Assembly: GCA_020523885.1 (NCBI GenBank)
Contig: JAJAPY010000017.1
Location: 2,492-66,491, forward strand
Origin: Candidatus Liberimonas magnetica
Lineage (GTDB): Bacteria; Elusimicrobiota; Endomicrobiia; Endomicrobiales; JAFGIL01
Length of the DNA: 64,000 bases
Reading direction: 5' to 3'
Shown one piece after another: positions 5,711-64,000 of the stretch (position 1 is its first letter; every line of letters starts with the position of its first letter). Under the pieces are notes generated by a model. The model saw only the letters and a list, made by a program, of their open reading frames with translations, was not told where the DNA came from and made no database searches. A program made the translations under genes and the position numbers.

Positions 5711-5733
5711 AAAAGAGCCAATAATAAAATCTA

Positions 5734-6528: not shown

Positions 6529-6624
6529 ACTAGGCCGGACAAGTCAAGGAATCTAGGCTAAATGAGGATTTTAATTGATTTTTATCTATAATTTTGATAG
6601 TTTATTCACAAATGGAGGCTGCAA

Positions 6625-8691: not shown

Positions 8692-8751
8692 AAAATGCCT
8701 TACCTGTTCCACTACAAGGAAATATATTTGTTTTTGTCCTGCTTTACTGCC

Positions 8752-11202: not shown

Positions 11203-11219
11203 ATAAATTGTATTTTGTT

Positions 11220-12434: not shown

Positions 12435-12441
12435 CTGTATA

Positions 12442-28866: not shown

Positions 28867-31800
28867 TTATGCGGCGCTTAATATCTGTTTAGTGCCGATT
28901 ACTATGCCTGTTTGTATCTCTTTTTTAAAAGGTATTTTTTGATCATTGTCTTTAGTATAGAACTGGAGCATTTCTCCTATTAATGTCCATGCCTCATCGT
29001 CAGTTAAAAAAGATGCCTCATTGCCAACTAAAAAAGATATACTTTTTAGGTTATCTTTTAAAGCTATTAAGTTAGGGTTATTCGGCATTTTTATAGAAGG
29101 ATTAATTCTGCTTTTTTCAATATTATTAATGATGGCTTTTATTTCATCAAGTTTTAAAGTGCCTGCAAGTGTATCAAAATCAGCGATTCTGGAGTTAACT
29201 ACGCCAAAGGAAACTCCTCCCATATAACCTATAATTGCAGCCCTTGCTTCACTTAGGTAAATCCTGATAATATTCGGGTCTTCTTCTGATTTAATCTTTT
29301 CTATAAGGCTTTTAATTTTATTATCTATAAGTACTTTTATTAGTTTCTTAATATTGTCTGCTGCATCTATCTGGCCATAGAGATTATTAATGGCAGTGCA
29401 TATTTCTTCTTTACTGACAACTTCATTTTTTGACATTCTTAAAAGAATAGTATCTATTGCTTCTATTTTTTCAAAAATAGGTTTGAGCCTAATAAATAAC
29501 TTTTCAGCGTCTTCTTTGGTTGTCATTTTATCTGCAATTTCCCAGGTTTCATTTCTTGCAACAGCCTGGCGCACATCTTCAGAAAGGATATTGCTCTTAG
29601 GTATCATTCCCCAGATCATGTTTAAGAGACCGATCTTAAATACTCCTGGCTGCGGTTTCTTATCTATGTATGATTCATCTATTATCAGCCTTCTGGCCTT
29701 CATAGATTCTTCACATAGGGGTTTTAACTGTTCAGGATTTTCAATAGTATCGCTTATATTTAAAGATATTGATGCACCGTTTTGAACAGCTGTTTTAACA
29801 GATGAACTTGCCTCATCGAGATTTTCATTTTCAGTGGTAATACTATATATTACTTCAAAGCCGTATTGTCTTCTGACTGCGGCAGCATCAACATTATTTT
29901 TTGTTAAAACCAGAATATTGCAATTTAACGGTATGAGGCCCTTATTTTTATTAGCGGTAATATTATTATTAAGAGTATCTAAGTCGGTTGTTTCAGAAGC
30001 GCTCAAATCTACATAAATATCAAAGTTTATCGGTAAAGATTGCTCAACAAGCCATTCCTTTTTAATATTGACTATCAATTGGATGCCCATTTCCTTGAGT
30101 TCTTTACTTGCAGTATTCAATTTCTCGATGACGCCTGCTTCATTAGGATTTTTTATATCAACTATTATACTGCTTATATTTGGATTATCCTTAGCATAGT
30201 TAACCAAACCTGATTCTCTTTGGGTTTTCAACGTAACCTGGGTAACTCCTATTACGCCCTTATTTGTTGAGTTCTTTGCCATCTGGTACAATCCGATATT
30301 TGCAAGTATATGCTGCTCATCGGTTTCTTTTTCAGCTAAAGTGAACGAACGCTTTACAACTTTTCTTAATTCAGGGTACATTTTGGCAGAAAGGCTTTCT
30401 ACCGGACCGGATAGTTCGCTTGGATATTCAATTGCCCAGGCCTGCATACCGAACTCTGAAACTGATATTAATCCTTTTTCATTTAACTGCTGGGTAAGGG
30501 TTAAGCCTATTCTTGCTTCAATGTCCGGGCCGGCTTTCTTAGAATCTTCTGGCATAATACTATAATGCAGAATACCGTCATAATAAGACAAATTAATAAG
30601 TATATAATTATTATCATCATAAATTTCTGTATTTGTACCTATACAAACAGGCAGTACAAAATTCTTTGCATCTTCTTTTACTTTGCCGGCTGTTATCGGC
30701 AAGGATTTTACGCCAGCTTCATTTCTTTTATCTATTAAATTCTTTATTTGATCCGGCGGCATAGCTGACGGGATTATCAGAAGGCTTACTTTTGAAACTA
30801 AATCCCTTGCAAGTTCTCTATTCCCTGCTTTTTCTGCCAATATTTTAAAACGGTCCTCAATAACTGAATTTCCTGTAATATCATCAACTAACTGCTTTAT
30901 CATATGTAAAGGCTGGACAATATTTTTGCATACATTTAAGATAAATGTAGCTGACATAGCAGTATTCGGCGCAGTAGTTTTATTTACAGTGCGTGAGTTC
31001 TCTGACCGTACAATATATTCTAAAATATCAAGAATTACTATAATACCTCTACCATCGACAAAATATCTTGCATAATCTTCTATTTTGGGAATTAGTGCAG
31101 TCTCAATGTTGGCAACTATGCTATCTGGCGCATGGGAAGCCAGTGTATCTAGTATTACAGATGAATCGGTTATTTCTTGGTCTTTTCCACTCAATTTTTG
31201 ATAAGAGGAACTTTGGGGATAAGGATTCTTAATTCCGAATGGGAAGCATTGAACATGCCACATTTCTGGTAAACTGTTTACTATCTTTGATAGTGAACGT
31301 TCTGTGCTCCGTTCTTCGCAAATAGTTATATTGTGCTCACAATCAATACGAATACCTTGCTGTTCAATAATTCTCTTTAAATAACCAAATAAAATATCTT
31401 TATCATAAACTCCCTCACTTTCGTTAGATACTGGCAAAATAATTATATTTTTAGGATTGATATTATATCTTGGCGCAAGAGATTTTACAGCTTCAGCTAA
31501 TGGTATAGAACCTCTACCAACAAATAATAATAGATCTCCACCAAATGTATTATAATTATTTAAAATATAGGTAGCATAGTCAACAATGTTTTCTACAGTA
31601 GGACCTAAGACACGTAACCGGTCTTCATAAGTATCTTGAGGCAATTTTTTATGTAATAATGCTAATAATGAAGCTATTTTCAAGATATAAGAACAAGTAT
31701 CTGGGTTTTTATCAATATAATCTAATAGCCCAGAATAGCCATATTTATCTAGGATTCTAATAATTTCTGCTTTTTCTATTGAAGAAATTAGAGAACCGGG

Positions 31801-34800
31801 GGATGTAGTTGCCTCAGGTCCTAGTGCACGGGCTGCGTTGATACTAATGTCTTTGAGTGTTTTTATAAATTGTGCGCCGGGATATACCCTGCGAACGAAC
31901 TCTGTTATTTTAGCTGCTGTTGTTTGCGGCAAGGGAGTGGAAAGGATATACTCTCTTGAGCGCTGATGGATTTCCTTGTCTTTCGTGTAGGGGCTTCCGT
32001 CCGGCGCTTGTTCCAGCATCCTGTGCCAGGATTCCTGACGGGATAATGTGCCAGAAATATAACTATTTAACACTTCATATTCCGCACTGCCTTGTATGTT
32101 TATGGCTGAAAACTCATGGAGCTCAGTATCTATGACGTCAGCCCACTCGTCTTTACTGTAAATATCATAAAACACTTTAGACACCAGGAGTTTTAGCCTG
32201 GTTCCGTCTTGAGCTATACCGCAGTGACCATAGACAGCTTTACCATCTTTGGTTTTACCTATCTCTATTAATCCCATCTCATTGGGCCTATGCCTCTCAA
32301 CTTCTATAGTCAGACCAGCCAATGAGGGATAGACGGCCAGCTTTTTTTGTGCTAATTCTTCAAACCTTAAGTCTATATCTTTTTTATCAACAACCGGTGT
32401 AGCACCTGCCAAAATTGCCTTCTTTACCTCGGAAGCTATGGCATCAGTTGAATCCTTTAAGGAACCGAGCGTTGTTGATGCCTGCAAGTTTTCGAGCACC
32501 GCATCCACCGCACCGTCCCAATAGCCTACGGCTGCCTGTGAGGCTGAGGCCGTTTGGCCGCTTGTTTCAAGTGAATCCTTAAGGAGTTGAAGTAATGCAC
32601 TGACGCGTTCTGGCTCAGACATGCCTTTGGTGTCTTGGATAAGCTGTTCACCTTTAATCTTAAGCGCACGAACTTCAGCGGTTGATAAACTGGTTGTTTT
32701 CGCATCCAGCATTTCCTTCCATAGGGTGACAAAAGCATTGGTAAAGGAATACTTTTTTGGTTTATTTACTATGGTACCGTCCCAATCTGAGACATATAAT
32801 GTAATACGTTTTTCAGGCCTGTTGCCGCATACAATAACACCATCAGGTTCAGAATGCTTTTTGTCGTCATCATTTATCCTCATCCACCACAGGAGGTAGC
32901 CACGTACATCCGGATTGTAGTTTGGAATGACTATATCTGCACCAGCTTTGATAAGCTCTTGTTTCCGTTCCTCGCTGTTATAAACACCTATACAGAAGAC
33001 TCCGGCCCGTTTTCCTGCCTTTATATCATCAGGGCTGTCCCCTATCATAACCGCAGTGTCAGCTTTTCTGACGCTGTCTTTCAAAGCCTGTTTTATAGCT
33101 TCTGTTTTATTGAGATAGGGATAATCATTTCTGCTTCCCTGTCCTGCACAATACATTTTTCTTATGGGCAGGCTGTGTCCGGCACTGGCAATCCACAGCA
33201 GAGCTTTAGTCATAATGTCTTTCCATGTGGCTGTAGCAACTGCCAGGTATACATCCTTGCCTTTAAGTTCATTGAAGAATTCTTCTGTACCTGTTACAAA
33301 ACCTTCCTGATCAATATTTTCAAGAAACTCCTGATAGATCGGTTCATATATCTGTTTAAATCTATTGAACCACAGGTCCTTTCTTATTACTTCATCAATT
33401 GATTCTTTTATTGTTATTCCAGGTTTTTTATCGAGGCAGGCTATTATGTCAGATTCCAATTGATTGTTTGAAGACCCAAATGAAATCGAAATACACTCTC
33501 TTTTTATGCTGTTTATCAATTCATCAGCCTCTGCTTCTATTTCTGAATCTGACAATTGCTCAACATGTTTACTATATCTATAATCTGCAACATCAATAAC
33601 CATGGGTAAACCATTATTTGTTACTAAAATATTTTGGTGTATATCTTTCGGATAGAACCCAGCTTTTAAAATGTCTTTGATTATATTTCTCAATTCAACG
33701 AAAAATTTACCATTTAATTTTTCGGCTATAGATCTATGCATAATATTGTCGCCTTTTATATATTGTAAAAGCAAGGCTTTATCTCCAAGTCTGTCAAAAC
33801 TTTGCAGGTCTAGTTGGACAATTCCATTAACCGTGGTCAAATTTTCCAAAATTTCTCTTGTGTTTTTTACTATAACGTAACCTCTAGTTAATGGAATTAA
33901 TAAAACTTTAAGCTTTAATGAGTCATTTTTATCTTTTACCAGAATACCAGCGAAATCTTGCCCTATCCCAAGCAATTTGACAAATTCGAGAGCATTAGAA
34001 CTGTCATATTTATCTAACTGCAAATAATCTTCATCTTTAACTTGTTTGTTAATAGAATTCATGTTATGAATTATCATCGAAATATCAAGGCCGAATTTTC
34101 CAAGATGTTCCATGCAAATATTACGGACTTCTTCACTTAAAATTGTTTTATCAAAACCATTATTGTCTAAATAAGTTACCAATTCTTTATAAAGTTCAGA
34201 AAACATATCCTTTAAAGATTCTTTAGGCCACGACATAAATTCTTCTAGATCTAAAAGGTTGTATAACATCCTTTGTATAATTATGCGGTATCGGATTTTA
34301 TATATTGTATCAGCTTGGTCAATCATAGTAATTTCTTTATTAGGTTCAGTATTCTGCGTAACTGTTTTTGTATCTTCAAGCGGTTCTGTTTTTTGAGTTT
34401 CAGCAAAAGAAGGAGACTCATTCGTGCCATTTTGTATAAATTCATATACTTTATGTAACGATGTTGTTAGAAGTTTTAACTCAGCATATAATTGTTCCAA
34501 ATCCATTGCTGTATCCTTGCCGTTTAAAATATTTTCGATATGTGTAATAACCTGGCAGAGGAGTACAAAATTAATTTGTTCCATATAGATTTTGCGTTCT
34601 TCTCCCTTGAGCCCATATGCAGTATTTTCTTCAAGTGATCTGAGAGAAAGGCACTCTGTCATACCTATCATTAAACCATTCAATTCATTTTTTAAGGCTA
34701 TAAGGTCATCGGGCATTTTATTAAAATCATTCCCTAATCTTAACTTGATCAGATCATAAGGTTCGCCTTTAGCAAGGCTTGAGGATACTATTCGGAGGGT

Positions 34801-58800: not shown

Positions 58801-61800
58801 AGGTCCTGTAACAATAACACCGTAGTCGAATATATCGGCGCTACCTCCGATATTATGGCCAAAATTCCCCGGATAGGTATTCTGCGAACCTATATAAAAT
58901 GCTTTCCCGTCAACAGCTACGTATTTATTATGGTTCATAGTTTTAGCTTTGGCAAAATGGACCCTGTCCAAAGCTTTCTGTATCTCTTGCGGGTCTTTTA
59001 TCCCTGCATTCAGCATCCATAACACGCCAGCAAGCCTTAGTTTATTCACCTGTTCCGGAGTGTTCCTTGAAACTATAATATCGACATCCAAGCCGTCAAG
59101 AGCCTTCTTAAACAGCCTTGCTATGATTCCCGGGTTATATGAATCTCCAAGGTAAGCCAGCATATCCTGAGACATATAAATATGGTTTTCAGCCGCGTCA
59201 AGAAGCGCATAAAGAGCTTTATCTCCGGAGTAATCTTCCTTTTGTTCCAGCAAATTGAACCTTCCCCTAAGAGTTGAATAAGCGGTTACTTTTTCTTCCG
59301 GGTTATTATAAACCTCTTTATCAATTTGAGGAACAGGAGGCGTGTTGTGACAGTCTTTCCAGCCGCCCCAACTGCACCGGGCACCCATCCTGAATATCAT
59401 ATTTGAACCTACGTCATAAAGCCTGTCAAACGCTGCCTGGGCTTCCTGAGCTATCTGGCCATGCAATATCAAAGACAGGTCTGACCACGGCCTGTTTTTA
59501 CGGACATAAACGTTCCCAAAATTGTGCCCGCCCGTTATGAGCGTGCCTCCGGAAGCGCCATCTATAAGAACCATTTTTGAATGATTGAAATTAAGACCCG
59601 GTTTATTATAATTAACGGAAATGAAAGCAATATTTACTTTCCACTTTCTATCTTGCGGCAGCATGCTTGTAAGCGCATCATATAATATATTTATTCTTTT
59701 CTTACTAAAATTCATGCCGGCGATAATACGGATCAAGGGATATGTACCACTTTCGTTTTCCGGTATACTGGCTTCCAGTTCTGCTATTGCCGGCGCTAAA
59801 TATTTTCTGACCATATCCTCATCATAGGACAGCGAAGATATGTCAACAGTTGATTTTGCTTTAGGTATTGCTTTTCCCAGCCTTTCAAAAAATGCTTCCC
59901 CGCTCTCTTTTGAGTTAGTAAAAAACAGCCAGTCAGGCAAGCCTTCAATAGCGTTATGCTCGGTTTCCGGAAGCAGGTATGTTTCCGGCGCATAATTTTC
60001 ATCACCTAAGGCAGCTATCAGCGTGCTATGAAGCTTTTCTTCAAAGTTTTTATATTTTACCTGATTTCTTTTCTTGTCTTTTATAAGGCCGGTTTTTTTA
60101 ATAAGCCTCCACCACAGGTCTGCGGAAAATAGGATTCCCCCTAAAATAATATCCTTTGTAAAACCTATTATAGATAATATCCAGTGAAAAACACTTGGCG
60201 ATTCTTCACTCTTATCATTGTCAACGTTTGTTTCGTTTTCAGGCAAAGCCTGAGGCAAATTGGCTTTTTTCCTCTCTTCTTCTACCCAGGCCCTGTGTTT
60301 GGGAAGTATAAGGCCGGCTTGTTCTTCAGGAATAACTTCGGTTGCCACAGAGGCATTATCTGAAACGTCTAAAACAGGCTTTAATTGCGGCGTTTCATCC
60401 CGAACATCATTTAATTCTGTTTCATCGTTTAAATCGTACCTGAAATACTCCGTAGCAGGTACAGTCCCAGTTTCCTCTTCTGATATAACCTCGGCATTTT
60501 CGCCGAACAATATTTCCGCCGTACCGGGTAGGACATGCCCGCTGATGTATTTGTACTTAATTCTGCCTGTCCTTGCTATGTCTATCAATTGCGACCGCAG
60601 AGCGGTAGTTATTCCTTTATCTCGGAATTCACTGCTTACTGCGACCTCTTCTATGTAAAGCGTGTTTCTTCTGCCAAGATTGCTGTCTATATCCCTATTC
60701 ACCACATCAGATTCATTTTCAAGCGGCCTTGCTATGAGAAAGCCTACAACCTTGTTTTCACGTTCTGCAATAAGGAATATACTCCTTGAATCCCTAAGAG
60801 CATCAGTAAGAGACCTTGTCTCAGGCACTACATCACTGCTAAAGCACTCAAAATTTATTCTCTTTATATCGTTTTTATATAATTTCCAATCTCTGTTGTC
60901 AGACCTTCTAATTTTTATGTCGCCCACAACTGTTACTTCCGGCGGCACAGTCTTAATTGATTTTTTAGTTTGTTTGGTTTTTCTCGCTTTTACTTCAGGC
61001 TCAGGAGCTTGTACTCCAAATGCAGTTACAGGAGGGACAAACCTCTTAACATCGTCTGGCACGGGCAGGTTTTTAGCCTGCATCCAGGCCGAATACCATA
61101 TATCTGCAACTGCCTGGCATGTAAATTTATACACAGCATCTTTCTTCTCCTCTAAATCGGCAGTTGAGCTGTGGACAGCTTTGCTCATTGAGGGTAAGGA
61201 TACTATATAAGCTTTCAAATTTTTCACATACCTGGCGCTTTCAATCGGAATACCTTCTAAATCACGCGTCTTGAATTTATTCTCTATAGTATGATGATCT
61301 TCAACAGAATGTACTACCGTATCTGCTGTATAATGAGCTATTATTCCCAGGCTGAATGCTATCGCTCCTGGATCTTTGTTCATTTTTATAAGGTTTTGTA
61401 AAACCCCTATCTCTTGAATCAGCCTGGATCGGGGATCAGTATGGTTCGTCCCGTCTCTGACCCGGTCGGGAGATACTGAACCCTCAAGAAGCCTGCCCAT
61501 GTTCTGTTTTAAAAGGTCCTTAAGATCGTCCGGCATTACTTTAAAAGCGTACTCCGAAACACGCCTGTGGGTTCCCTGCGCATAGGGCATTTCTAATTGG
61601 TCGGAAAATCTTGACAAATTACGTGGATTCATTTCAGAAGGCTGAGATAAGGCCAGACCGTCAATATTTGAGTGTTCATCAGTTCCTTCAGCAGTCAACG
61701 CTAATAGATTCTGCAGATCAACGACACCCTGAGTTTTCCCAGCTGCTGCAGTATCTACATTTTCATTGACTACAGGTATTTGCGAACGGACGATACCGAT

Positions 61801-63999
61801 AGGTGTGTCCGCTTTAGTACCGTATTTCCTGAGTTTATTAGCCAGCATAACGGCTTTTGCTGCTGCTGAATCTATTGCGACCTGGAAAATATATTTAAGT
61901 AAAACCCCTACTTTTTTAAATGAATCATTCCCTTTATAATTAAATAACATAACGATAGGAACCCCGATGTATACACCGATAAACGGTATGAAACAAAAAA
62001 GTGAGATCAATAAAGCCTGTTTCTTGCTTATTTTAAACATGTCTGCAATGACAAAAGAAGCAATTATAGAATAGATGTAACTTGGAATAGCTGTGATTAC
62101 TGATGCAACAGTAAATGCGAAAAGAGCGGCCCATGACCCTGTAAAAGCTGCAGCTGACAACGATGATGCAATCCCCAGAAAAGCTATAGGCAGACCTGGC
62201 AAAGCAGGCATAACCAATAACGAATAAAGCAGGATATAACCTAAGGTTTTCCTGTCGCTCATCAGCCCTTTTAGCGTTAAATAAGTTCCTTCAGTTAATT
62301 TGTTCGAACTGTGCCTTTCATCAATATCTTTAGATAGTTTGTCTTCGGTTGAGCTTATCTCTATCGTTAAGGATCTCTTCAATAACCTGGGCAGTAATCT
62401 AAGATATTTCTGCCGTCCGTCACTTTTAATGTTTTTAGCAAAAGCCTTAATATCTATTAATTTATAGGTAATTTTAGCATCAGGTACTGCCTTGTTTTGA
62501 CTTTGGTTTTCGATTGCGGGTTTTAAGGATGCATTTGGCTGGGTTGTTTTTTCAGTAATAGAGAGCTTGTTTTTATCGCTTACTTCAATTACAGCGATAT
62601 TGCCGGAATTGTGTTTTAATTCGATTATCAGGCTGTTAGTTGCAGGATTGATATTTATTGTTGGAACTTCTAATTTATATTCCGCAACACTTTTATCGCT
62701 CATCCATGCACCAAAAAGTTTATCGAGGTCAGCTTTCAAAGCGGATAAGTTATCTTTTGACGAAGGTGCTCTTTTCTTGATCTCATTGTCAATCATTGCA
62801 GCTAACAAGACTATGAACTTTTCATCACATATCTTTTTTATTTTTTCATCATAACCAGGGCTGCCGGGTTCAAATCCTTCCCATTTAGCGATGACCGGGC
62901 TAAGGCTCGAGCCAGAAAATAATCCGACCAGTTCGGTATCCATTTTGCCAGTGAGTATTTTTTCATAACGGCCCTCATCATACGGTTTCGTCACATTAGG
63001 TGTTATGGATATAAAAGAAACACCTTTCCCCTTTAATTTTTTAACTACTTCACTGTGAAAACCGCCTGCTACAACGATTTCTATGGATTTAAAGTCTTTA
63101 AGATGTGATATAACCAGCGAACTATCGCAATTTTTAGGGCCATTCGGGGTTTTGCCCGGCATGAAATTATTGATGTTATTTGTAAATATTTCATTACGAG
63201 CAACATTTGTCTGGTAATATTTAATGATTTCCTGGTCTTTTGAAAGATTTATTATTGTTTCTAATTGAGGGTCATTGTAAAGGTATTTCTTTAACAATAA
63301 TGCAAATCTGCTTGAATTATTAATAAAATAACTAAAGCTCTCCGAGGATGACTTTAACTGTACAAAGCTTTCAAAGTCTTTGGCCATTGAAGTCAGGAAT
63401 AACAACTCTTTATCTAATAGCCTGTCAGCATGCTTATATAAAACCTGATCTATGAATACGTCTTCTTCTTTTATCAGAAATATGGGGTTTAATATATGAT
63501 TTAGGTAAATATAAGAAAGGAATTTCGCTACATTAGGGTATCTCGCTTCTATTTCTTTTGTATTATATTTAGATATTTCATATAAGGCTGTATAATAATC
63601 TTCATAATTATTGTTTTTATCCAGTTTATCAGCGAGTTTTTGGTAGATAGTGTACGGCAGTTTCTGCTTTAATTCGCTTACATACGTCCTTAATTCATTC
63701 GGAAGGCTCTTGTATTTTATTTCTTTTTTAAGGTCTATTATATTTATATAAGTGGACAGGTCCGGGTATTTTTCCAGAGCTTCATTGTTTTTTACCGAAA
63801 GTTTTTTTAGTGTTAAATAATATTTATCATCTTTAGTTTTAGTTTTCAAATTGGTCTTTAGATATTTCTCTAAGACTGATATATCTTTAGATAAATATGT
63901 CTTCTTAAGCCCGATTAGCTTGTTTCTCAGGTCATCGGCCAGCATTTTATATTTGTTCTTATTTTCACAAAGCTCTTTAATTCTTTTTATATTAGCTAT
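28867..63999 (-). CDS. Giant multi-enzyme membrane protein (>11,700 aa; N-terminus outside window)
   Basis: 35 kb with no stop codon; frame stays open upstream of ATG 63945 (IANIKRIKELCENKNKYK-M) to the window edge; contains PLC-like, GNAT, PLD, transglutaminase-like, HAD, GH2, PRPP-synthetase-like, UPRTase-like and kinase-like motifs and many TM helices. Confidence 0.95.
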   Translation of the reverse strand: MANIKRIKELCENKNKYKMLADDLRNKLIGLKKTYLSKDISVLEKYLKTNLKTKTKDDKYYLTLKKLSVKNNEALEKYPDLSTYINIIDLKKEIKYKSLPNELRTYVSELKQKLPYTIYQKLADKLDKNNNYEDYYTALYEISKYNTKEIEARYPNVAKFLSYIYLNHILNPIFLIKEEDVFIDQVLYKHADRLLDKELLFLTSMAKDFESFVQLKSSSESFSYFINNSSRFALLLKKYLYNDPQLETIINLSKDQEIIKYYQTNVARNEIFTNNINNFMPGKTPNGPKNCDSSLVISHLKDFKSIEIVVAGGFHSEVVKKLKGKGVSFISITPNVTKPYDEGRYEKILTGKMDTELVGLFSGSSLSPVIAKWEGFEPGSPGYDEKIKKICDEKFIVLLAAMIDNEIKKRAPSSKDNLSALKADLDKLFGAWMSDKSVAEYKLEVPTININPATNSLIIELKHNSGNIAVIEVSDKNKLSITEKTTQPNASLKPAIENQSQNKAVPDAKITYKLIDIKAFAKNIKSDGRQKYLRLLPRLLKRSLTIEISSTEDKLSKDIDERHSSNKLTEGTYLTLKGLMSDRKTLGYILLYSLLVMPALPGLPIAFLGIASSLSAAAFTGSWAALFAFTVASVITAIPSYIYSIIASFVIADMFKISKKQALLISLFCFIPFIGVYIGVPIVMLFNYKGNDSFKKVGVLLKYIFQVAIDSAAAKAVMLANKLRKYGTKADTPIGIVRSQIPVVNENVDTAAAGKTQGVVDLQNLLALTAEGTDEHSNIDGLALSQPSEMNPRNLSRFSDQLEMPYAQGTHRRVSEYAFKVMPDDLKDLLKQNMGRLLEGSVSPDRVRDGTNHTDPRSRLIQEIGVLQNLIKMNKDPGAIAFSLGIIAHYTADTVVHSVEDHHTIENKFKTRDLEGIPIESARYVKNLKAYIVSLPSMSKAVHSSTADLEEKKDAVYKFTCQAVADIWYSAWMQAKNLPVPDDVKRFVPPVTAFGVQAPEPEVKARKTKQTKKSIKTVPPEVTVVGDIKIRRSDNRDWKLYKNDIKRINFECFSSDVVPETRSLTDALRDSRSIFLIAERENKVVGFLIARPLENESDVVNRDIDSNLGRRNTLYIEEVAVSSEFRDKGITTALRSQLIDIARTGRIKYKYISGHVLPGTAEILFGENAEVISEEETGTVPATEYFRYDLNDETELNDVRDETPQLKPVLDVSDNASVATEVIPEEQAGLILPKHRAWVEEERKKANLPQALPENETNVDNDKSEESPSVFHWILSIIGFTKDIILGGILFSADLWWRLIKKTGLIKDKKRNQVKYKNFEEKLHSTLIAALGDENYAPETYLLPETEHNAIEGLPDWLFFTNSKESGEAFFERLGKAIPKAKSTVDISSLSYDEDMVRKYLAPAIAELEASIPENESGTYPLIRIIAGMNFSKKRINILYDALTSMLPQDRKWKVNIAFISVNYNKPGLNFNHSKMVLIDGASGGTLITGGHNFGNVYVRKNRPWSDLSLILHGQIAQEAQAAFDRLYDVGSNMIFRMGARCSWGGWKDCHNTPPVPQIDKEVYNNPEEKVTAYSTLRGRFNLLEQKEDYSGDKALYALLDAAENHIYMSQDMLAYLGDSYNPGIIARLFKKALDGLDVDIIVSRNTPEQVNKLRLAGVLWMLNAGIKDPQEIQKALDRVHFAKAKTMNHNKYVAVDGKAFYIGSQNTYPGNFGHNIGGSADIFDYGVIVTGPTAKSVEEKLFLNILWNQKNAKHFTSSELRSAQDLIEDAASVENPFKNRSYDELDNGILPVIAGKDSSNIFEKEKLVKTIKNIVTDLRDTINGNETENENLEATAPIKKQEEFDSWVAWQIATREFEDTLNPIRFYLDHYRGENRYRGGYIQRAFGVAAITATMYAAWTYNFLSSLIHKNAFNAALKIAKHSAKRANIRSHAWYNLNFSKHKLTKPYIIGQPGLSKSEGQIALPAQDNLLEQLNQLSPDDIATATAILNDTSLDGSQLKIIASQVSLLTAVGISKSINNKKFDPVEKLTVLMHITELISSLQNLKIKPSVLQIIILSIINKTSSAKEIIAYLDKTSKFVISLPGLGANLTETEDYVKALIEKSKTFFEYMDYLNNLTAFMAALKDKGLEFNGAITPIVIAFLNIKISGSVILAPSQYAGTEFKPYLNKIQEFALGLIPGSGQVDDVVKMGIKGLMSDVLPVLIQETGTPVEFYAYLNSLTELLKNLNKKGVSYTAVKELLLQVFKLSLDSSRKNLISNQSAAANVFSEWNLYMKALAAFVNNLPENMQPREKELLLENLLVPVLKASSLGYFQFNGFLVRIGAVLVQVYKENKTAEQLTEHILNEIKTYTTFNANPVEAIESALSSLEEQLQQGRSLELPTEEIVQSKEEIGQSMIEVAMAMSIAVGFAGVLLTFAGVMPTWFGIVSGVLLAANTVVLLYINARRADERLKNFLELSKVKELKGAKSGEIGTFPINRVKVINFTLNPREEKIVLRAVQTVKKKVYSSIRLGNLDTDDSLRALRVLARLNSISEGIANGSIMKFNPIIEGKEKFLLGYTKNNQIVLPADFLRKNILNLPEILYYLAHIAEYGLPKTVDARHDKRKEIYEGEPRKIFGNINTLKTVLRQYVGQALIQNAWRKTWKRIEKGVLTSFLIIMLCSIGTAAVFGYQTTSLADAIYLRTLSEVPQLVDKDFDRKAYNETMASLDTPTKIAKYMAPWKPRIEAFQSASSEVIWGLNRTKGQYDKYGTLCSGYSRFAEKALQLHGYKTYTILIDWQTKPKSNSIQDSIRSHFVHEFIIYRDIKTEKWNIMSPYVNIILNSATFEDAIKFAASKDFRDTFGTALPKDVNKITISVAASQDFRYLYTQRYVAVNTHGKSLNSGYTLYKSDMLYETFNIVWPLQPLQELLIYSSIAALANLVIAARRKKTKKDVSVLTDSGKVEFLKLVELINEGINKGIIKDINSIKGLLQLNPKIAGEFLSSSKEGKILGAYIANKSAWIEKMNKLKADSFIISMTGEERKERVANWKNYPPNNFDDFLNYLRDTNNTKSLEKLEGLIKNDFMVFLEYRDFMERLLEVRPKLKANILYRIKEIINILLRRENLLLDNVLNYIPDDYQGLYIFKMMYADYAKRGFFIFSKDRRRKNDVLDALRLLRKDKENLSVEGIKVDVYSYILGQKLRFEIVDEIEASGKQKDYQIDAQNSRISISARSIDKFNVWKVKNLILESINALLIQEYQLGTLSSPVTEQPAARSKTRQKLKKPEKATAVGEDLNRLLKAAKTTVFLSLFISSIIHKGSVILAKKLIELFRSGKNVTEDFDSALKEVNLPDINKLAASLNTHDITDIEIWDSPDLILDENAYALATIEDNKLLLNSVLAYSLLRAPPEGQTIEDALRIIAQHEKLEFDGINEQSSLIYKSFSEYLFQPKIKDNNRTPDNFHKFLYFVANSNQPIQGISKEDAQSNINLLTYAKELIIANQAKENKEKPIPMTIAKAIEAIKSGEFDNIDQFIFDYDHTLWEGTAKMSDKETDLLKVLAEGRHLTILTGGIYEHKLNGLRPLLEKLDGKSIRLYELNGLNAYEFTIGTDKKIHKKVIYKNKYLPGLLKFLYVLLKMRPSKKDTIVKMAKYYDFPLNKVAYVGDSFGMKKVEKSVINKIIEGETTNDLPVADLIPEGAKVIWTQGTEDTIQLLDVLNERIEKTSSIPSIDHDQASSRDGHPKEDISLKDATLINDFKELENASNGDLPDLVLVMTGNNKRMENYYRDFIKSGLDPSLSNIPFDVVPSAQTGDGISLIDALTYQDSERMEILRRQYPQLAGKDITKMRIVVLNISESEPSRITNELPIQIKGKKITPLELALLRGVRETQRLKDKNRYGIVVKDPGNIVLGYMNRVGDVTCELAKVSDDQMDEQKHPTVLKNGNARILKLFPDYDTEKIDETIEKSQMPPKLKDPKVEQNYAFTGNLTISFEDTEKYLFFLKSMKKLKAAATAGYVNRSPPKLDLVKHILIPLVMLSNNEDPFTYLMLFRKTLKGNKDYYLNIFRFYRNLFRDSHFSNFSLTSFTPEASLITRSYPDTEAIPSSCKKQLETFQRISEKPEYPLSAKPKDSILKRIRTKVSLTLFRLKPTMGKEIDEELTADISQIDPKSGVIFKSAKTYLDEWEKTLEEYNTTGDFVGLERIFEISKNFISITKFSNKMFGFNAKSSAQLYKKFTELSLKTIESIDNQTIETNAKYIGSENLQLTLSALNNFKNRFIPLSLYGLEYLRGLDFARNLDIMSGYIFNKKSFFERTGIMPLNRLVFGMGYGIRVSKNDLRKQIDKISGLGNMILESLYNNEELRLDIEHYIKDMENPPEQIALGMNKAWNQRKALQRTLNLLISLQSIIATIVWSIGSNYVSTQLSTIILLSFIIPFVTGIGLSMFLHWTFIIIGRDNYFYDSRIKTINGYITPELKENISKAITKADEIKTLIDSSISLIDKLYQANRSNKLVLKTIKSAKEDIIRLSHALMKALHNADEKLAITALDSILEAVKRLENTKDNEGSKDATKQLSDNKNKLEKIIYDSKIRFQNKIKSIESETYNPADVFDVSNHYIGHWYSVLGNNQSLSSDDIDSMRDDLKKIIKITPISFKTEEIAHRDKIMNLYGHLQILLDLTFDKISELNSEESVKLNPEIKALAEMYSYVIAYCKIHGYINNIEILSKYEISKNSTWYFLEKTHLMDLVRLIFGVSVGSALSKRYILKLMQNIINSGNYIILGLYNKEELDKEQETYFRSKNSHTYFELGMSEGWRVRRMLSRFLPLVLLLKPFVIYFIWGTSITAAGFLYSFVTGVGLLILFHWTPIILGLFTNSYRKGGKIIKKYKAMGDKTSTAAPYHNDILENECEQLNEAVDGELPDLVLVMTGNNASDTEYFNELFEKRNPKLKDTPFECIPSASLGNGISFFDSFFINNLTSKHPALQGKDPSKLRIVVLNCDGIDRNILNSKLNIKIRGKSVTPLELALLNGIKALQNLGSTKDGPRGGRVVIDPGYAYLGKIKRTGNITLIGSNVSYSQTVSQSLSIIMQNGRLNRLFHKFNTGSDLANQLTKRSVIGLYDFNNPDIKQIQAYTGITLFSFDDPAQFSSFCSVISKLKNQIVQESSGRSPPMLEMIAHFLIPYIILSNKENPYTFYAKLMNFMEQNGEAELSAQDQDFYWTIFDSLKSLSGESRFQKVEVYTPPESIFTSAIAGTRDNAEFEGQMNAFSDISEQANKKLYDNTRIIESIPIKERPIEDLPVDFTPTEVVPVDLSQEKTLLNGNWGVIAKDGDITTTAMNLPTNWELAEGVHNYAGAMLFHKKLNIASVPKDKQILLHFDGVDYFTRVYVNGRLVISHEGYFQPFEVDIAPYLVAGDNDIVVEVNSPNEQAGYAHTYSTIWPQMKRLLKGIFQIWDLRPGSRLVPYTEDWNPMDGQDMNTGGIWNDVTLIVKDKVRIENAKITTNLNKGPKGDANIAIEINGENKLDVNQTVIYEIIIRDPDGNILNEDGKPLTPREKIFEPYTKKVTLELVPGQNKQIVDVTIPDPQLWWTWDLCDPGHKPALYDVEITLSQDSKKQRLDSYKNQVGIREIKQADDGTWYLNGRKIKPRGTSYVSSLMLSQSKGFFERDIELLKKLNMNLVRVHAHVEPYEFYKLCDENGIMVWQDFTLQWQYSDSEEFRHQAVKQIAEMVNMLYNHPSVVLWCCHNEPALSGQTDKSKTLDQLMFEKVRRLDRSRIVKEFSGHDEHIYPEWYMPSFMYRIYNTVFPSEFGAQSLPSEEMIRRMLVGVADDKDEENNWNIIKQMDWRRLKNYYKLMKSKPDDLSPEDQLAKKVLKRLIYHNFQPYYMFGMAGVEPAKTLSEFIANSQDYQGKLIKRYTEKFRREKHFKGQIMFTFNDIWNSITWSVVDFFRNEKSSFELMRLANQPLMASAVTKNQDEKRIHSHWFEELWLVNDLNIVPNSKLKISIFKVDKTSGARKVIKEKTMDVVIPSNDTTKLSLDKSAWQIGDDIEAGDYEIRLDIIDGSGNIISTNKESEKVIRPTSMEEIELQRKHYLHKLIQYKMTADWMIYAVETWINFTVMLGLTFKTAKRFLLNFIRDWVKRADSENKPLNLLAITDEKISIEFNERRLAGKELRKGTNLGKEIDLRLKNPEPLKTAKNVTLECDIDSYDDIVTIILVADMLKLYAKKYGNKDFKVILKLRNVQEFKNGVDRLLSQHCDIIYKHYGDKEHVIEKPIVPLTPDKRKTSVVLQDVLYEHTRLRSDADIAAKNLKSIQSEWMTENKRFFGFLSDVPKNAERIIIENKDDQNPLNWVIKVPKDIAGKNIVLMHSTENNKDIMELWLILVALRDAGVNSISLINEYESYARQNKVSEDEFGHSGLAADTMLTMIDALVDTHVVLNAPYGNGKSGQVTFMGHVLYNLNAFVHVAEKQFELLLNSIPELELSEEQKQFLKDGKSLTLTNEQKVNIYQHLNSHPLLLLSPDMGSSSYAEEAALSLKDSIANRYGLDIPVVIESGFLNKDKLAEYKDNKIYQKFPAGSKKLPYKLFGWLLIDVLKINWFAKYVGVILEINGVPISNATVFLIDDEISTGTTLTAAKNILVKRKFGEKLIFRGVVHGKFSDKISEEDSDITCTNSMDIPKNYDPNRIANIGAVLKYVVNNLIGISLLRISGKTVSINAIELVLQGHKIYITRGLGLKGLGNVVAYEVTDNGIKYLTSKDVKEYLAYTSYDLAYTVKSIISNKGVYKGEPFEAELKSSADLRTSLAEVIKNLVKQLESKDDVIQTLKDKTIVLSSAITEENKTQPDYRIEGIRQIGILMRQFIDLRTSSLTTRYNIISRLTKETLKYLKYLNEALNETFLDFNKDENIIIMPVLKGGVVLQQAIYDTYPKAKVCPVTSERSASGPVLNYGIDWKDNPGKLQIQGGNIILADSLLVTGNTIIDIIEDLLPENPKSITILSIYDLPDGMESIAKKIKEWEDRFPDTDIRMLVACQADVSNAGNVPYPYAGDVGNEFSKDATDILHKLMDGTGIAGIINEFQSKYTEKRNEQLKREIIVRHQKTRLLKENVFTVDFWNINFRSNLEQLIAVLSLIGISLALGSYFTFVLNNVLLIITSSVFFLTFAVLLLKPIYSLISNMSLAINSEIALSRMPKINIPSTINEVSLDIYDSSNLDGNELVKWIQEQFKRQMKLDDEGWDNLSLDIFRLMEFVIKARKSGVRKIKFNAYTAKPTIFKNFTELSLSGTLKCSVNIFFKMNQNRSDIATINKITDSILIKARHKLAFSYKAYMSTTDIVKNHIITHDFSRKDEEARMRAEADIKNLAEELSNSADISEQGKGKLFREAIDLITEYKEGFNIKFFTPDNPLKSNIMNPFTDSSVIFIDPKLDEGKYTVYIDLDFWNSSILGKEDEKRNENLRIVSLLANISKQIHYMDVMHLSHYLDAKRFTYDELSIMARMKLVTTIREHVSQQTKDQEQLGLIELGRMNREGNMYTASVFGPIFNRSIEEYIQKTLIESADKNLLITCLRDRATPFRRLIFEFIQTNIVTSIYYLLNKLKIMNFIYFIIDFHNKFYFAHKDITKTIEKAKKIETTIQRISSSYSKGESNELIQMRLGDDFSKLNENLLALRKELNGLMIPLADWLFIRSMGETNSYGLTGEERKIYVEQISFVLLCQVIAQIEDVLNSKDTAIDIEQLQIKLQILISKLETVNKLVQKSREKDKPSQVKTKIPVLKNMPNPLAKQKKEHTASSPEQLIEESKEKLFDEGILSAVNPEPGILSQTKKKRKDNLGKGPVEVAPILLPGTAAEIVDQAVLISKIRYHIIIKGVLNSLRNEDLPWPKYLVNRTFSELYKELTDYLDTVDLKDPAVRGGISILFKKHLRQYDFFNDPFIESITKGIPDRANNPNFLPFEKYDKDNALEFVNLLGVGGSFARILVKDKNDSSKLKVLLIPLNGSKEAVKGLRIILQKLAPVKRVSQEDPQSLDRFEDQALLLEYFEGKNILSEDVYNSLTNKSFIELTNIVEAALKCGFYPVDIYNSILLGNDGLPFIINVADFDPLVQPVTDSEIKSASSFVINQIRRDIITDALKIIPVWPLDDFRAKRVKNIETMLDNKPELTIQEAIDETKKGNSNPLVSSITTLKIRSIPILGFFFRNLDTDLAIFLDTFRVSAALWVAAVIFAPIIEAKELMGIFTGIGMESLTYASVNKLLKWEDIEKNEKLDKFLKKHRSYDSNRDILVSGVKSIYDAVNSSLNKSIFSIWLSNIISHALHNNTALLYLKAPPIIESTSDLTVRTNKGALLRFNVSRFPGKELKEGTELGQEIDLRIKDPEYLKTAEYVTIETNIYNYDDVVKIIAAADMLKLLASNFGNTHLIVKLKLINVNKFSNSIDSLLALHCDEIYLSSANYEKPYRIEKPIIPLNDSSRKSSVWIQDVLYEHGRLKDDADMAAKNLKVEGSKRIIIENKEDENPLNWVVNVPQAIAGKNVVLIHSTENNKDILELWLILAALRDAGVASISLIDEYESYLKQDKIFVNEYGYSGIAADTMLKMIDAFVDNHAVFNAHFGDESGRTSFMGHVLYNLNAFVQVAEKQFEILLDSIPELLSDKDKKSLKDGNGLTLTPEQKVKILLYLKSHPLLLLSPDVRSPNYIAEAVIGLKDSIATRYGLDIPIQIESGLVYKNKNITAKVSINENIFRKLPVGHKRLLYLLFGWLFIDILKSNSFANYVGVILEINGIPVNNSTVFIIDDETNTGATLDTAKEILSKLHFKKEMIFRGIVHNKFSEDMSKEHSDIICTNSMDIPKNCNKDRIANIGAILNYVVNNLIGISLLKIEGKTVSINSIELVIHGHKLYITRGLGIKGQGNVVAYEATDNGIKYLTSDELKEYLKYLPNDKTLALSVKSIISNKGVFTGKSLETEITTSSNLRTSMLEVINNLAKQLESKDDAIKTLKDKAIVLSTALTEEDMPEAKYRTEGIKKISVLIRQFIDLREGSLTTRFNIISRLTKETLKFLNLNKDERVIIMPILRGGAVLEQAIHDTYPDAKVCDVTTRRSDAGLILDYGIDWKKEPDKLQIEGSNIILADTLLVTGKTIIETVEELLTTIPEGQRVPIKPKSITILSIYDVPDGMELVAKKIKEWKDRYPDVNIRMLIACQADISNTSKSPYPYAGDVGDEFFLDRKTRKQTTGYEIMHMLIDGKGIVGIINEFQFEYTKETNEKKREHFIYKNQKIPFLKEKVFSVDFWKDEINSDLKHLIFMSGLAGISAALGVYLILILHNVILFIASTVFVLIFTGLLIKFTYSLLSHISLRINSEKILSATPRNIPVSINNVSLDIYDTYNLNANNLSIWLQEQFKEQLSLNDDDLKKLFSYYDFYRLREFIIEARKAGVKEIKFNDYPDGLKALKGSTELSLSGTLKCPANLFLKPSIVKDPDHYILISNKIILMVLINIKNKLHHIHNAEMSARDIIDYHIADEYPLSTEEGDLILKAKTEIKDFGQALTDSNDISEQKKGKTFNEATNLIDNYLGECEIMFFDPDEQVKSYLMDPFNVPNFVFVDPQLNESGKPVIYIEHDFWEQSIIGKAGEEKDSNLRVVALLANIAKQLEVMKLKPQLSLRELNNIKREGNTYASSVFGPVLTRSIQEYIKTTLVKSDYKNLLFASVDNRAPPFKKLLFNLMQTDISTRVYYLLHKTRILDFIFSIVDSYNKSYFAHNNILTAIDKSRKIEDTLRIVSSSLAKGEPYDLIKLRLGNDFNKMPDDLIALKNELNGLMIGMTECLSLRSLEENTAYGLKGEERKIYMEQINFVLLCQVITHIENILNGKDTAMDLEQLYAELKLLTTSLHKVYEFIQNGTNESPSFAETQKTEPLEDTKTVTQNTEPNKEITMIDQADTIYKIRYRIIIQRMLYNLLDLEEFMSWPKESLKDMFSELYKELVTYLDNNGFDKTILSEEVRNICMEHLGKFGLDISMIIHNMNSINKQVKDEDYLQLDKYDSSNALEFVKLLGIGQDFAGILVKDKNDSLKLKVLLIPLTRGYVIVKNTREILENLTTVNGIVQLDLQSFDRLGDKALLLQYIKGDNIMHRSIAEKLNGKFFVELRNIIKDILKAGFYPKDIHQNILVTNNGLPMVIDVADYRYSKHVEQLSDSEIEAEADELINSIKRECISISFGSSNNQLESDIIACLDKKPGITIKESIDEVIRKDLWFNRFKQIYEPIYQEFLENIDQEGFVTGTEEFFNELKGKDVYLAVATATWKDIMTKALLWIASAGHSLPIRKMYCAGQGSRNDYPYLNKTEAIKQALKDSVRKADTAVMIGDSPDDIKAGKRAGVFCIGVYNSEERKQELIKAGADIVIPNYNPDVRGYLLWWMRINDDDKKHSEPDGVIVCGNRPEKRITLYVSDWDGTIVNKPKKYSFTNAFVTLWKEMLDAKTTSLSTAEVRALKIKGEQLIQDTKGMSEPERVSALLQLLKDSLETSGQTASASQAAVGYWDGAVDAVLENLQASTTLGSLKDSTDAIASEVKKAILAGATPVVDKKDIDLRFEELAQKKLAVYPSLAGLTIEVERHRPNEMGLIEIGKTKDGKAVYGHCGIAQDGTRLKLLVSKVFYDIYSKDEWADVIDTELHEFSAINIQGSAEYEVLNSYISGTLSRQESWHRMLEQAPDGSPYTKDKEIHQRSREYILSTPLPQTTAAKITEFVRRVYPGAQFIKTLKDISINAARALGPEATTSPGSLISSIEKAEIIRILDKYGYSGLLDYIDKNPDTCSYILKIASLLALLHKKLPQDTYEDRLRVLGPTVENIVDYATYILNNYNTFGGDLLLFVGRGSIPLAEAVKSLAPRYNINPKNIIILPVSNESEGVYDKDILFGYLKRIIEQQGIRIDCEHNITICEERSTERSLSKIVNSLPEMWHVQCFPFGIKNPYPQSSSYQKLSGKDQEITDSSVILDTLASHAPDSIVANIETALIPKIEDYARYFVDGRGIIVILDILEYIVRSENSRTVNKTTAPNTAMSATFILNVCKNIVQPLHMIKQLVDDITGNSVIEDRFKILAEKAGNRELARDLVSKVSLLIIPSAMPPDQIKNLIDKRNEAGVKSLPITAGKVKEDAKNFVLPVCIGTNTEIYDDNNYILINLSYYDGILHYSIMPEDSKKAGPDIEARIGLTLTQQLNEKGLISVSEFGMQAWAIEYPSELSGPVESLSAKMYPELRKVVKRSFTLAEKETDEQHILANIGLYQMAKNSTNKGVIGVTQVTLKTQRESGLVNYAKDNPNISSIIVDIKNPNEAGVIEKLNTASKELKEMGIQLIVNIKKEWLVEQSLPINFDIYVDLSASETTDLDTLNNNITANKNKGLIPLNCNILVLTKNNVDAAAVRRQYGFEVIYSITTENENLDEASSSVKTAVQNGASISLNISDTIENPEQLKPLCEESMKARRLIIDESYIDKKPQPGVFKIGLLNMIWGMIPKSNILSEDVRQAVARNETWEIADKMTTKEDAEKLFIRLKPIFEKIEAIDTILLRMSKNEVVSKEEICTAINNLYGQIDAADNIKKLIKVLIDNKIKSLIEKIKSEEDPNIIRIYLSEARAAIIGYMGGVSFGVVNSRIADFDTLAGTLKLDEIKAIINNIEKSRINPSIKMPNNPNLIALKDNLKSISFLVGNEASFLTDDEAWTLIGEMLQFYTKDNDQKIPFKKEIQTGIVIGTKQILSAA
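33390..39090 (-). repeat. Copy 2 of the ~6.5 kb-period intragenic tandem duplication
   Basis: Collinear with 39590-45620; e.g. DNA at 37444 and 43921 nearly identical (offset 6477). Confidence 0.92.
39590..45620 (-). repeat. Copy 1 of the ~6.5 kb-period intragenic tandem duplication
   Basis: GKEL..GT.LG.EIDLR through L(D)NKP.(L/I)TI.E.IDE shared with 33390-39090. Confidence 0.92.
48330..52800 (-). repeat. A-B-B-A arrangement of two diverged intragenic protein repeats
   Basis: A modules (51780-52800, 48330-49360) share LPDLVLVMTGNN, TPLELALL.G, RSPP; B modules (50710-51150, 49470-49880) share E.T..M.L.RL.FG, LGM...W..R..L.R, TG.GL....HWT. Confidence 0.85.
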
Positions 64000-64000
64000 A

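Follow-up and report, generated by a model that had tools for sequence, protein, structure and literature searches.

A 64,000-nucleotide stretch of the genome of the Elusimicrobiota bacterium Candidatus Liberimonas magnetica (contig JAJAPY010000017.1 of assembly GCA_020523885.1, positions 2,492 to 66,491; hereafter the window) carries, on its minus strand, all but the start of an open reading frame (ORF) for a giant membrane protein of 11,876 residues. We propose, tentatively and with confidence a little short of even, that this giant is an export-gated inner-membrane polyprotein which a periplasmic domain near its own N-terminus (the head), a candidate processing protease, would cut into separate, membrane-anchored enzyme modules. 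The ORF, its domains, the fold and conserved residues of the head, the geometry of an upstream leader ORF and a set of motif biases are established here, and the mechanism that may join them is set out after the evidence for each.

The 11,876-residue ORF is real and complete. An initial annotation, made from the window alone, had found a frame on the minus strand (28867-63999) that runs off the edge of the window without a stop; extension along the contig closed it at 11,894 codons from stop to stop, placed the start Met 497 nt outside the window and revealed a hydrophobic, signal-like stretch at residues 25-43 (on a hydropathy scale, not SignalP). Residue numbers refer throughout to the stop-to-stop frame, in which the Met is residue 19 and residue i has the window coordinate 64551-3(i-1). 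An open frame this long has a chance probability of ~1e-398, and no hidden stop interrupts the 35 kb. A single Logan contig (run X1) matches window 33000-52999, including both copies of a large internal duplication, without a break (0 differences, 0 gaps); run X1 is possibly the source sample, and this agreement is therefore not independent data. In the duplicated blocks identity per codon position is 0.68/0.80/0.54, position 2 being kept best, which for the large duplicate is the pattern indicative of purifying selection. An assembly chimera or a chance ORF was rejected in view of the closed frame, the gap-free Logan contig and the codon pattern, and also because long head-bearing frames were seen in two single-contig genomes, G057 and G284. 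The genome analysed (3.39 Mb, 29 contigs, 97.8% complete, Endomicrobiales-like) encodes seven ORFs of more than 10,000 aa.

The head is predicted, from its modelled structure and its motifs, to be a TIKI/ChaN/EreA-fold hydrolase that has kept its catalytic set. Heads were present in 18 of the 5,926 frames of the genome, which answers the question of how many paralogs share the GGFH domain picked out by the initial annotation, and these 18 paralogs account for 10.8% of the DNA. In alignment numbering, H34, E62, R388 and GGFH are invariant in 18/18 paralogs and D32 is found in 17/18. The two-His, two-acid and Arg set of the superfamily is present in the giant as D96, H98 and E126, just outside the window, R452 (63196-63198) and H499 of GGFH (63055-63057); these residues were assigned by motif order and by a 28-residue spacing, not by residue-level superposition. 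The members of set A4 were chosen by motif 1 and GGFH, and the Glu and Arg played no part in the choice. The His-to-Glu spacing of 28 is that of the protease RRSP, whose catalytic set comprises E3900, H3902, E3930 and H4030 together with R4001, and of Bcr135 (accessible text of PMC6254334).

The N-terminal domain had initially been described as helical. In the AF2 (AlphaFold 2) model (pLDDT 87), the core is instead the parallel beta-sheet, alpha/beta core of the TIKI/ChaN/EreA superfamily, and what stands of the earlier description is an insertion of ~270 helical residues. Comparison of the model with 48,161 chains placed ChaN at rank 2 (Z 8.6, rmsd (root-mean-square deviation) 5.9, 183 aligned), followed among superfamily members by Bcr136 (rank 5), HopBA1 (8), Bcr135 (11), EreC (19) and PMT (32); a second structure comparison returned EreC first (Z 8.1, rmsd 4.9, 168 aligned). 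The Pfam profile PF04187 (ChaN, Tiki superfamily) matched four of 26 distant members (best E 3.7e-6), two frames of genome G244 lying above the cut-off, and gave no direct match in the 18 heads of this genome, the profile link being made through relatives only. Foldseek found no match for the head at E<=0.001, and searches of PDB sequences with it gave nothing real.

The head family is large (8,544 clusters at 50% identity) and was found in 84/301 genomes of the phylum. Using a search pattern that fixes the D and H, 77 of the 79 nearest loci are titled Elusimicrobiota/Endomicrobiia; eight of the 68 longer matches are named Omnitrophota by their source, and all carry the motifs. The kinship with giant genes of these two phyla suggested initially is thus upheld. 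The family is also kept in termite-gut and rumen Endomicrobiaceae, and has expanded greatly in distant families, where one single-contig genome has a frame of 12,935 aa. Among the best 150 representatives listed, the start of the domain falls no later than residue 265.

Some further features of the heads were noted. Many members carry, just after the head, a semi-conserved small-hydrophobic motif (S/A-L-A/S-P/L; ~62895-62915, aa 546-552 in the giant), possibly a first cut site or else part of the fold. In the single-contig relative G284, heads occur in short frames of 354 and 341 aa (C1:272343-272729 and 2369502-2369792); these may be versions that stand alone, which would be simpler to use in assays. 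Two head loci (L025 and L073) sit in metagenome-assembled genomes titled Nanoarchaeota and Bacteroidota, a placement probably due to misbinning. Heads were found in 14/44 small genomes of genus g11 vs 14/14 in g17, which hints at loss with genome reduction in g11.

Upstream of the giant, and overlapping its start, lies a 196-aa leader ORF ending in LARASID, a member of the LPRGxID motif family, and followed by an intrinsic-terminator-like hairpin. Across the family the layout consists of a signal-like start, a spacer, a hydrophobic stretch, LPRGxID, a gap rich in AT and finally a hairpin that resembles a terminator. The motif was found in 26/91 upstream regions (12/18 own, 14/73 related) and terminators in 57/91, compared with 1/298 and 14/298 in controls; six related loci with <700 nt upstream were left out of the survey. 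All 26 motif-bearing regions have a terminator, and the distance from the Arg to the terminator is 42-55 nt in 24 of them. Of the 28 related loci with a terminator and no strict motif, 22 have a frame of 117-215 codons in this place, and most of these frames close with a hydrophobic stretch plus a variant of the motif. All six Arg codons are used at the Arg of the motif, and the conserved entity is therefore the peptide. Genome-wide, 17/44 motif matches are followed by a terminator, and 15 of these 17 stand ahead of family giants. The other two precede large signal-bearing proteins, namely a 12,189-aa giant outside the family and a 955-aa protein; a secA, secDF or yidC context was found at none of the 17 sites.

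The leader stops at least 14 codons past the Arg or continues in frame into the giant; thus, a running ribosome would reach the hairpin and one stalled at the motif would not. Stalled ribosomes allow intrinsic terminators to form (PMC5021804, accessible part). Leader and terminator therefore look like a switch that would permit synthesis of the giant only while export works, working export meaning, we infer, that the gene is on. Neither element had a Pfam or NCBIfam match at cut-off. A riboswitch or known RNA leader was considered and rejected, there being no Rfam match at the gathering score and no predicted antiterminator fold (mean z -0.04).

Several variants of this arrangement were also observed. 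The 12,189-aa giant (G000:C11:237903-274472; loci L019 and L111) lacks a TIKI head and has an LPRGxID leader, a terminator and a GAA end; the control elements are therefore common to a second type of giant. A second leader family, ending LxxSNLPW and with the same terminator spacing, precedes three paralogs (G000:C1:93595, C3:86811 and C15:22389); other leader ends in relatives read YASIKKLY, RRGSLP or LARSVP. At loci L008, L009 and L012 the leader runs in frame through the terminator into the giant.

Two motif biases mark the giants themselves. Ribosomes stall at R[AGS]PP, a motif that proteomes exclude (PMC12992588, accessible part). The giant has four such sites, and in 211 deduplicated family proteins 29 of the 108 x[AGS]PP sequences have R as their first residue vs 0/127 in a background of 702,604 aa from the other frames of the genome; composition predicts 5.3. 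None was found in 127,083 aa of ORFs flanking related loci.

At the other end of the protein, an A[AGS] C-terminus closes 11/13 closed paralogs vs 6/1,534 background frames (22 expected). It was also found in 61/101 representatives of >1,500 aa and in just one of the eight Omnitrophota-named matches, several of which are partial. C-terminal ends of the A[AGS] or LAA type can act as degrons; the genome encodes ClpX, and its tmRNA tag ends LAA. At G000:C24:110055-156045 (loci L011, L114, L021 and L113), frames of 6,931 and 8,434 aa come together at a stretch of N and are perhaps a single family giant of ~15,000 aa; the second of these frames ends SAA.

The enzyme cargo of the giant was surveyed by Pfam and NCBIfam scans of 29 overlapping chunks, about half of which had no library match. 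Seven predicted enzyme types have library support (Table 1), and NCBIfam and PDB sequence searches agree with the Pfam assignments. Among the modules named in the initial annotation, the phospholipase C (PLC)-like, GNAT, phospholipase D (PLD), GH2 and both UPRTase-like domains scored above the Pfam cut-offs; one PRPP-synthetase-like copy did so too, the other falling just under (24.5 vs 25), and the second of two HAD domains was recovered, the first remaining below the cut-off. The transglutaminase-like segment, the two kinase-like and the two nucleotidyltransferase-like modules had no relevant Pfam or NCBIfam match; one nucleotidyltransferase-like copy had no PDB match and the other no Atlas match. 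Nor are the modules all unrelated, as had been stated. Residues 6311-8317 and 8487-10387 form one ~2,000-aa duplication, 56% identical, that contains PRPP synthetase, UPRTase, a transmembrane (TM) hairpin and a kinase-like module; further duplications pair residues 3914-4279 with 5060-5428 (36%) and 4443-4613 with 4864-5026, the nucleotidyltransferase-like pair being the duplicated ~370-aa modules of window 48268-52812. The paired modules stem from internal duplication, and these three blocks, together with the three unsupported calls, had inflated the module count. The stated absence of NRPS/PKS (condensation, adenylation, KS) and adhesin-repeat families holds over the 29 chunks with both libraries.

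Individual modules show some features of their own. The GH2 module carries NEP (5901-5903) and SEFG (5962-5965), which we take to be its catalytic motifs. In the second HAD domain the DxD, as judged by eye, comes after motifs II-IV, and the domain is possibly circularly permuted; its DxD segment alone had no Pfam match. The PLC-fold module starts with Met-Pro (61564-61587, aa 989-996), a few residues before its first His, and so resembles a captured stand-alone gene, with no ribosome-binding site evident ahead of this Met. PLC/P1-fold enzymes use as a zinc ligand their free N-terminal amine, which lies five residues ahead of the first His; such a ligand, if it applies here, would require release of the module. 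In the paralogs, 34/73 chunks of which were scanned at E<=1e-6, the cargo comprises adenosine deaminase, alcohol dehydrogenase (ADH), TPR, cNMP-binding, GH94, deaminase, radical SAM, phosphofructokinase (PFK), HEAT and TrmB domains. A large share of what the giant and its paralogs carry belongs to cytoplasmic protein types (PRPP synthetase, UPRTase, PFK, ADH, radical SAM, helix-turn-helix).

The membrane insertion and the TM hairpins between modules that were initially described were borne out by hydropathy, with 21 segments by Kyte-Doolittle windows and 13 on a stricter scale, several of them forming hairpins. By flanking charge, a crude measure, the head and the transglutaminase-like segment are the only parts that clearly lie on the outer side of the membrane, the latter being probably periplasmic, and most other cargo would face inward.

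The recurring linker noted initially is represented by a three-helix module with an E-H-H-N signature. The giant has two copies of this module and the set 45; reversed decoys gave 0 matches, and the model has a pLDDT of 90. Of the conserved E, FxxxH and HxxxN, the E is kept in 41/45, the first H in 43/45, the second H in 44/45 and N/D in 44/45. It was found in 46/301 genomes, all 46 of which also carry the head, and among the matches listed it always lies in a frame of at least 667 aa. No standalone-length homologs, Atlas match, PDB sequence match or Foldseek match at E<=0.001 were found. Its best fold matches are unrelated helical proteins (Z up to 6.7), with APH-1B at rank 35 (Z 4.9) and Rce1 not among the matches listed. 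Compared with PF02517/Rce1, 1/36 members matched at E 0.04 and hhalign gave Prob 0.07 and 25%; iteration from Rce1-like seeds recovered 0 known modules of this kind.

Table 1. Features of the giant ORF and its upstream region. Coordinates are window positions and aa numbers are those of the stop-to-stop frame, unless stated otherwise.
Feature	Position	Strand	Basis
Giant ORF, 11,876 aa from Met19	28867..64000 (window part); G000:C8:31358-66988	minus	frame closed in contig
Leader ORF, 196 aa	L001:18982-19572, beyond window	minus	signal-like start, spacer, hydrophobic stretch, LARASID
Intrinsic-terminator-like hairpin	42 nt past leader's Arg codon, ~20 nt before giant's ATG, beyond window
TIKI/ChaN/EreA-fold head (predicted)	62932..64000 (in-window part); whole head aa 65-540	minus
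First TM bundle	61960..62235, aa 773-864	minus	hydropathy
Zn-dependent phospholipase C / P1-nuclease-fold domain	61201..61572, aa 994-1117	minus	PF00882 E 6e-9
GNAT acetyltransferase	60553..60855, aa 1233-1333	minus	PF00583 E 1e-10
Phospholipase D, two intact HKD motifs (H1657, H1874)	58747..59754, aa ~1650-1900	minus	PF13091, NCBIfam
Three-helix E-H-H-N/D module, copy 1	58162..58485	minus
Transglutaminase-like segment (Cys2937) between two single TM helices	55285..55992	minus	sequence, topology; fold unconfirmed
Module with RAPP (53839-53850) then HExxE, also in one paralog	53713..54207	minus	sequence
HAD-like domain 1, DxD kept	52912..53484	minus	below Pfam cut-off, E 1.3e-3
Two ~370-aa unannotated modules (RSPP in each) flanking two TM-bearing module copies	48268..52812	minus
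GH2 glycoside hydrolase	46147..48087, Pfam 5489-5960	minus	Pfam, NCBIfam
First copy of the large duplication: PRPP-synthetase-like, UPRTase-like, TM hairpin, unknown, kinase-like	39601..45621	minus
E-H-H-N module, copy 2	39133..39486	minus
Second copy of the large duplication, carrying RAPP at aa 9855	33391..39093	minus	Pfam, PDB, NCBIfam
HAD domain 2	32752..33420, Pfam aa 10378-10523	minus	PF13419 E 2e-11
Conserved C-terminal end ...ILSAA, ssrA-tag-like	28870..28899	minus

Elsewhere in the window, the 23 ORFs downstream of the giant are of housekeeping type, and no immunity or secretion genes were found among them. Window 3272-13242 holds two ~815-aa sulfatase genes and genes for a phosphodiesterase, TauE, a CysN-like GTPase and a PAPS-reductase domain, a sulfate-handling cluster.

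In the mechanism that we propose, the leader peptide would stall its own ribosome at LPRGxID. Failing a pull by Sec/YidC on the signal peptide and TM segment of the leader, the terminator ~50 nt downstream would fold and the 35-kb gene would go untranscribed; with export active, the ribosome would run into the hairpin and transcription would read through. The product consists, as judged by sequence, of a signal peptide, the TIKI head and TM bundles and hairpins threading captured, duplicated modules, most of which probably face the cytoplasm. The internal RAPP-like motifs may pace translation to insertion. The periplasmic head would cut the chain at periplasmic loops into separately anchored enzymes, and membrane modules of the E-H-H-N or Rce1-like kind possibly assist it. 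The final fragment would, through the AA at its C-terminus, be passed to ClpX-type or tail-specific proteolysis. Under one export-sensitive switch, the 18 paralogs would represent interchangeable enzyme sets. Stalling, release by export, proteolysis by the head, topology and degron function are steps that we infer from these features.

A number of observations weigh against this mechanism. With regard to the head, the first rank in the fold comparison went to a designed helical bundle, which matches the helical insertion, and the Z-scores are middling, at 8.6 or less; the evidence therefore lies in the convergence of six members of one superfamily in the top 32. A haem binder belongs to that superfamily too, as do esterases and inactive proteins (accessible text of PMC6254334). 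Processing as initially proposed has gained a candidate enzyme in the TIKI head and no shared junction motif, RSExR, GxSLG and SSPV not being enriched at the junctions (RSE.R 2 vs 2.1 expected). Profile, iteration and fold tests gave no tie of the E-H-H-N module to CPBP proteases. The topology rests on crude scales, and a family-wide test of TM parity and charge was uninformative. As to the switch, the leader pattern was derived from the paralogs of this genome, only 14/73 related loci match it strictly, and 3/18 paralogs have no leader or terminator. RAPP-like motifs are missing from 10/18 paralogs, 6/29 of the R[AGS]PP sites lie ahead of an HExxE module and possibly have a structural role, and there is no enrichment in the distant set (3 vs 1.8).

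It is fairly unlikely, in our judgement, that the protein remains uncut and serves as a membrane-stapled multi-enzyme array, the head of which would hydrolyse an ester, peptide or lipid from outside, or bind a ligand, while the switch may still operate. TM segments that are largely hairpins, the absence of a junction motif and best structural matches to the EreC esterase and haem-binding ChaN are all in line with such a scaffold, and the placement of PRPP synthetase beside UPRTase would suit channelling. The cargo, however, changes wholesale between paralogs and makes no pathway, and the catalytic residues of the head are constant across two phyla whatever cargo follows; a fixed head with variable cargo therefore fits a head acting on the precursor itself. 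Further from the evidence is a mostly silent gene store, a very unlikely reading in which the terminator keeps the giants off and captured, rarely translated ORFs drift under weak selection. Such a store would account for the strong terminators ahead of the start, for cargo far diverged from its PDB relatives and for the chunks lacking library matches, but not for a frame without a stop in 35 kb, the purifying codon pattern of the duplicates, RAPP-like motifs above expectation rather than merely tolerated (29 vs 5.3), or the conservation of both head and tail.

The initial annotation had favoured exported effectors for lipid and glycan attack, a proposal weakly supported because most of the cargo looks cytoplasmic. 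In the corresponding MARTX-like effector train, which we consider improbable, the precursor would leave the producer by export or by delivery into prey or host cells, and the lipases, glycosidases and nucleotide-scavenging enzymes cut from it would act there. Behind the signal peptide come many stop-transfer helices, the scans of the giant detected no RHS, MARTX or adhesin family, the downstream housekeeping genes include no immunity or secretion locus, and the family is retained in termite-gut and rumen Endomicrobiaceae too. Against these stand PLD, PLC-fold and GH2 motifs that look intact, four secretins in the genome, the TIKI domains of the effectors HopBA1, PMT and RRSP, and the case for predation made in the accessible text of West-Roberts et al. 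(10.1101/2023.11.21.568195).

The accessible portions of West-Roberts 2023, PMC11573180 and PMC12057145 treat it as an open question whether the giant multi-enzyme proteins of bacteria are produced whole, cleaved or exported. The present locus makes this question testable without a cultured organism, through a 476-residue head with five named residues and a C-terminal tag on one side, and a ~190-residue leader with a seven-residue motif at a fixed 50-nt distance from a terminator on the other. Given the size of the head family, thousands of proteins would gain an annotation from a single assay. If an arrest peptide does gate a Sec client through termination, the concept of monitoring substrates would be extended. 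Taken as a whole, the system might amount to an undescribed expression platform, in which a reverse-SecM leader acting via a terminator is combined with RAPP pacing, viral-polyprotein-like maturation by TIKI and an ssrA-like tail, and the same head might be the missing maturation enzyme of many Omnitrophota giants; we regard this wider claim as rather doubtful.

MARTX toxins possess repeats, a cysteine-protease domain and type I secretion. The giant resembles them in being a huge single chain, in which unrelated enzyme modules accompany a protease that is a candidate for self-cutting, and differs in having a Sec signal and inner-membrane helices and no detected repeats or cysteine-protease domain. 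It works like the Archaeovorin-type giants (10.1101/2023.11.21.568195) and resembles the multi-enzyme metabolic cluster giants with signal peptide and TM segments (Nielsen & Lui 2026, 10.64898/2026.06.07.730766), which, as far as the accessible texts go, likewise exceed 10,000 aa and combine a signal peptide, many TM helices and divergent mixed enzymes (GNAT, HAD and glycoside hydrolases; HEAT and TPR in the paralogs) with proposed post-translational cleavage. Giants of Omnitrophota and Elusimicrobiota are described in 10.1101/2023.11.21.568195, where cleavage by C39/S8 domains is proposed and N-terminal regions are generally without identifiable domains (accessible text). The same head occurs in the eight proteins named Omnitrophota; on the other hand, the present protein has 11,876 aa vs the Archaeovorin criterion of at least 30,000 aa in Omnitrophota, and no SecA-DEAD, C39 or S8 domain was found in the 29 chunks of the giant or in the paralog chunks scanned. 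The words Tiki, ChaN, CAAX and terminator are absent as such from the main texts of 10.1101/2023.11.21.568195 and 10.64898/2026.06.07.730766, and neither a TIKI head nor the leader is mentioned in the accessible parts of Nielsen & Lui 2026, PMC11573180, PMC12057145 and PMC3482391. The literature search, which did not extend to subscription journals or to bioRxiv supplements that may bear on the point, found no paper connecting the giants of Elusimicrobiota or Omnitrophota with TIKI, arrest leaders or RAPP motifs; the regulatory leader is apparently undescribed.

With the TIKI/TraB/ChaN/EreA superfamily (ChaN 2G5G, EreC 6XCQ/6XCS, Bcr135/136, HopBA1, RRSP) the head shares a parallel beta-sheet core as well as the order acid-x-His, Glu 28 residues on, Arg and second His; it is set apart by Asp rather than Glu as the first acid, by the ~270-residue helical insertion and by its fixed place at the front of giant membrane proteins. 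The E-H-H-N modules share with CPBP/Rce1/Abi proteins (PF02517) the residue order E, F..H, HxxxN, and full Rce1-like modules occur in other family members; unlike these, the modules in the window have ~100 aa, one Glu and no EExxFR. The leader, finally, resembles the monitoring-substrate arrest peptides SecM, MifM, VemP and ApdA/ApdP (PMC10987492 and PMC12992588, accessible parts) in being a small upstream ORF with an export signal, a spacer of >30 aa, a conserved C-terminal motif and an RNA hairpin thereafter. In size, signal, spacer and motif it agrees with the features used to find such substrates in PMC10987492 (accessible part), the sec/yidC context used there being absent. Its motif is LPRGxID or LxxSNLPW and not RAPP-like, LPRG having 0 occurrences in PMC10987492, and its hairpin is terminator-like instead of masking a Shine-Dalgarno sequence. 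Furthermore, the gene downstream is a costly export client and not sec or yidC, and the predicted logic is therefore reversed.

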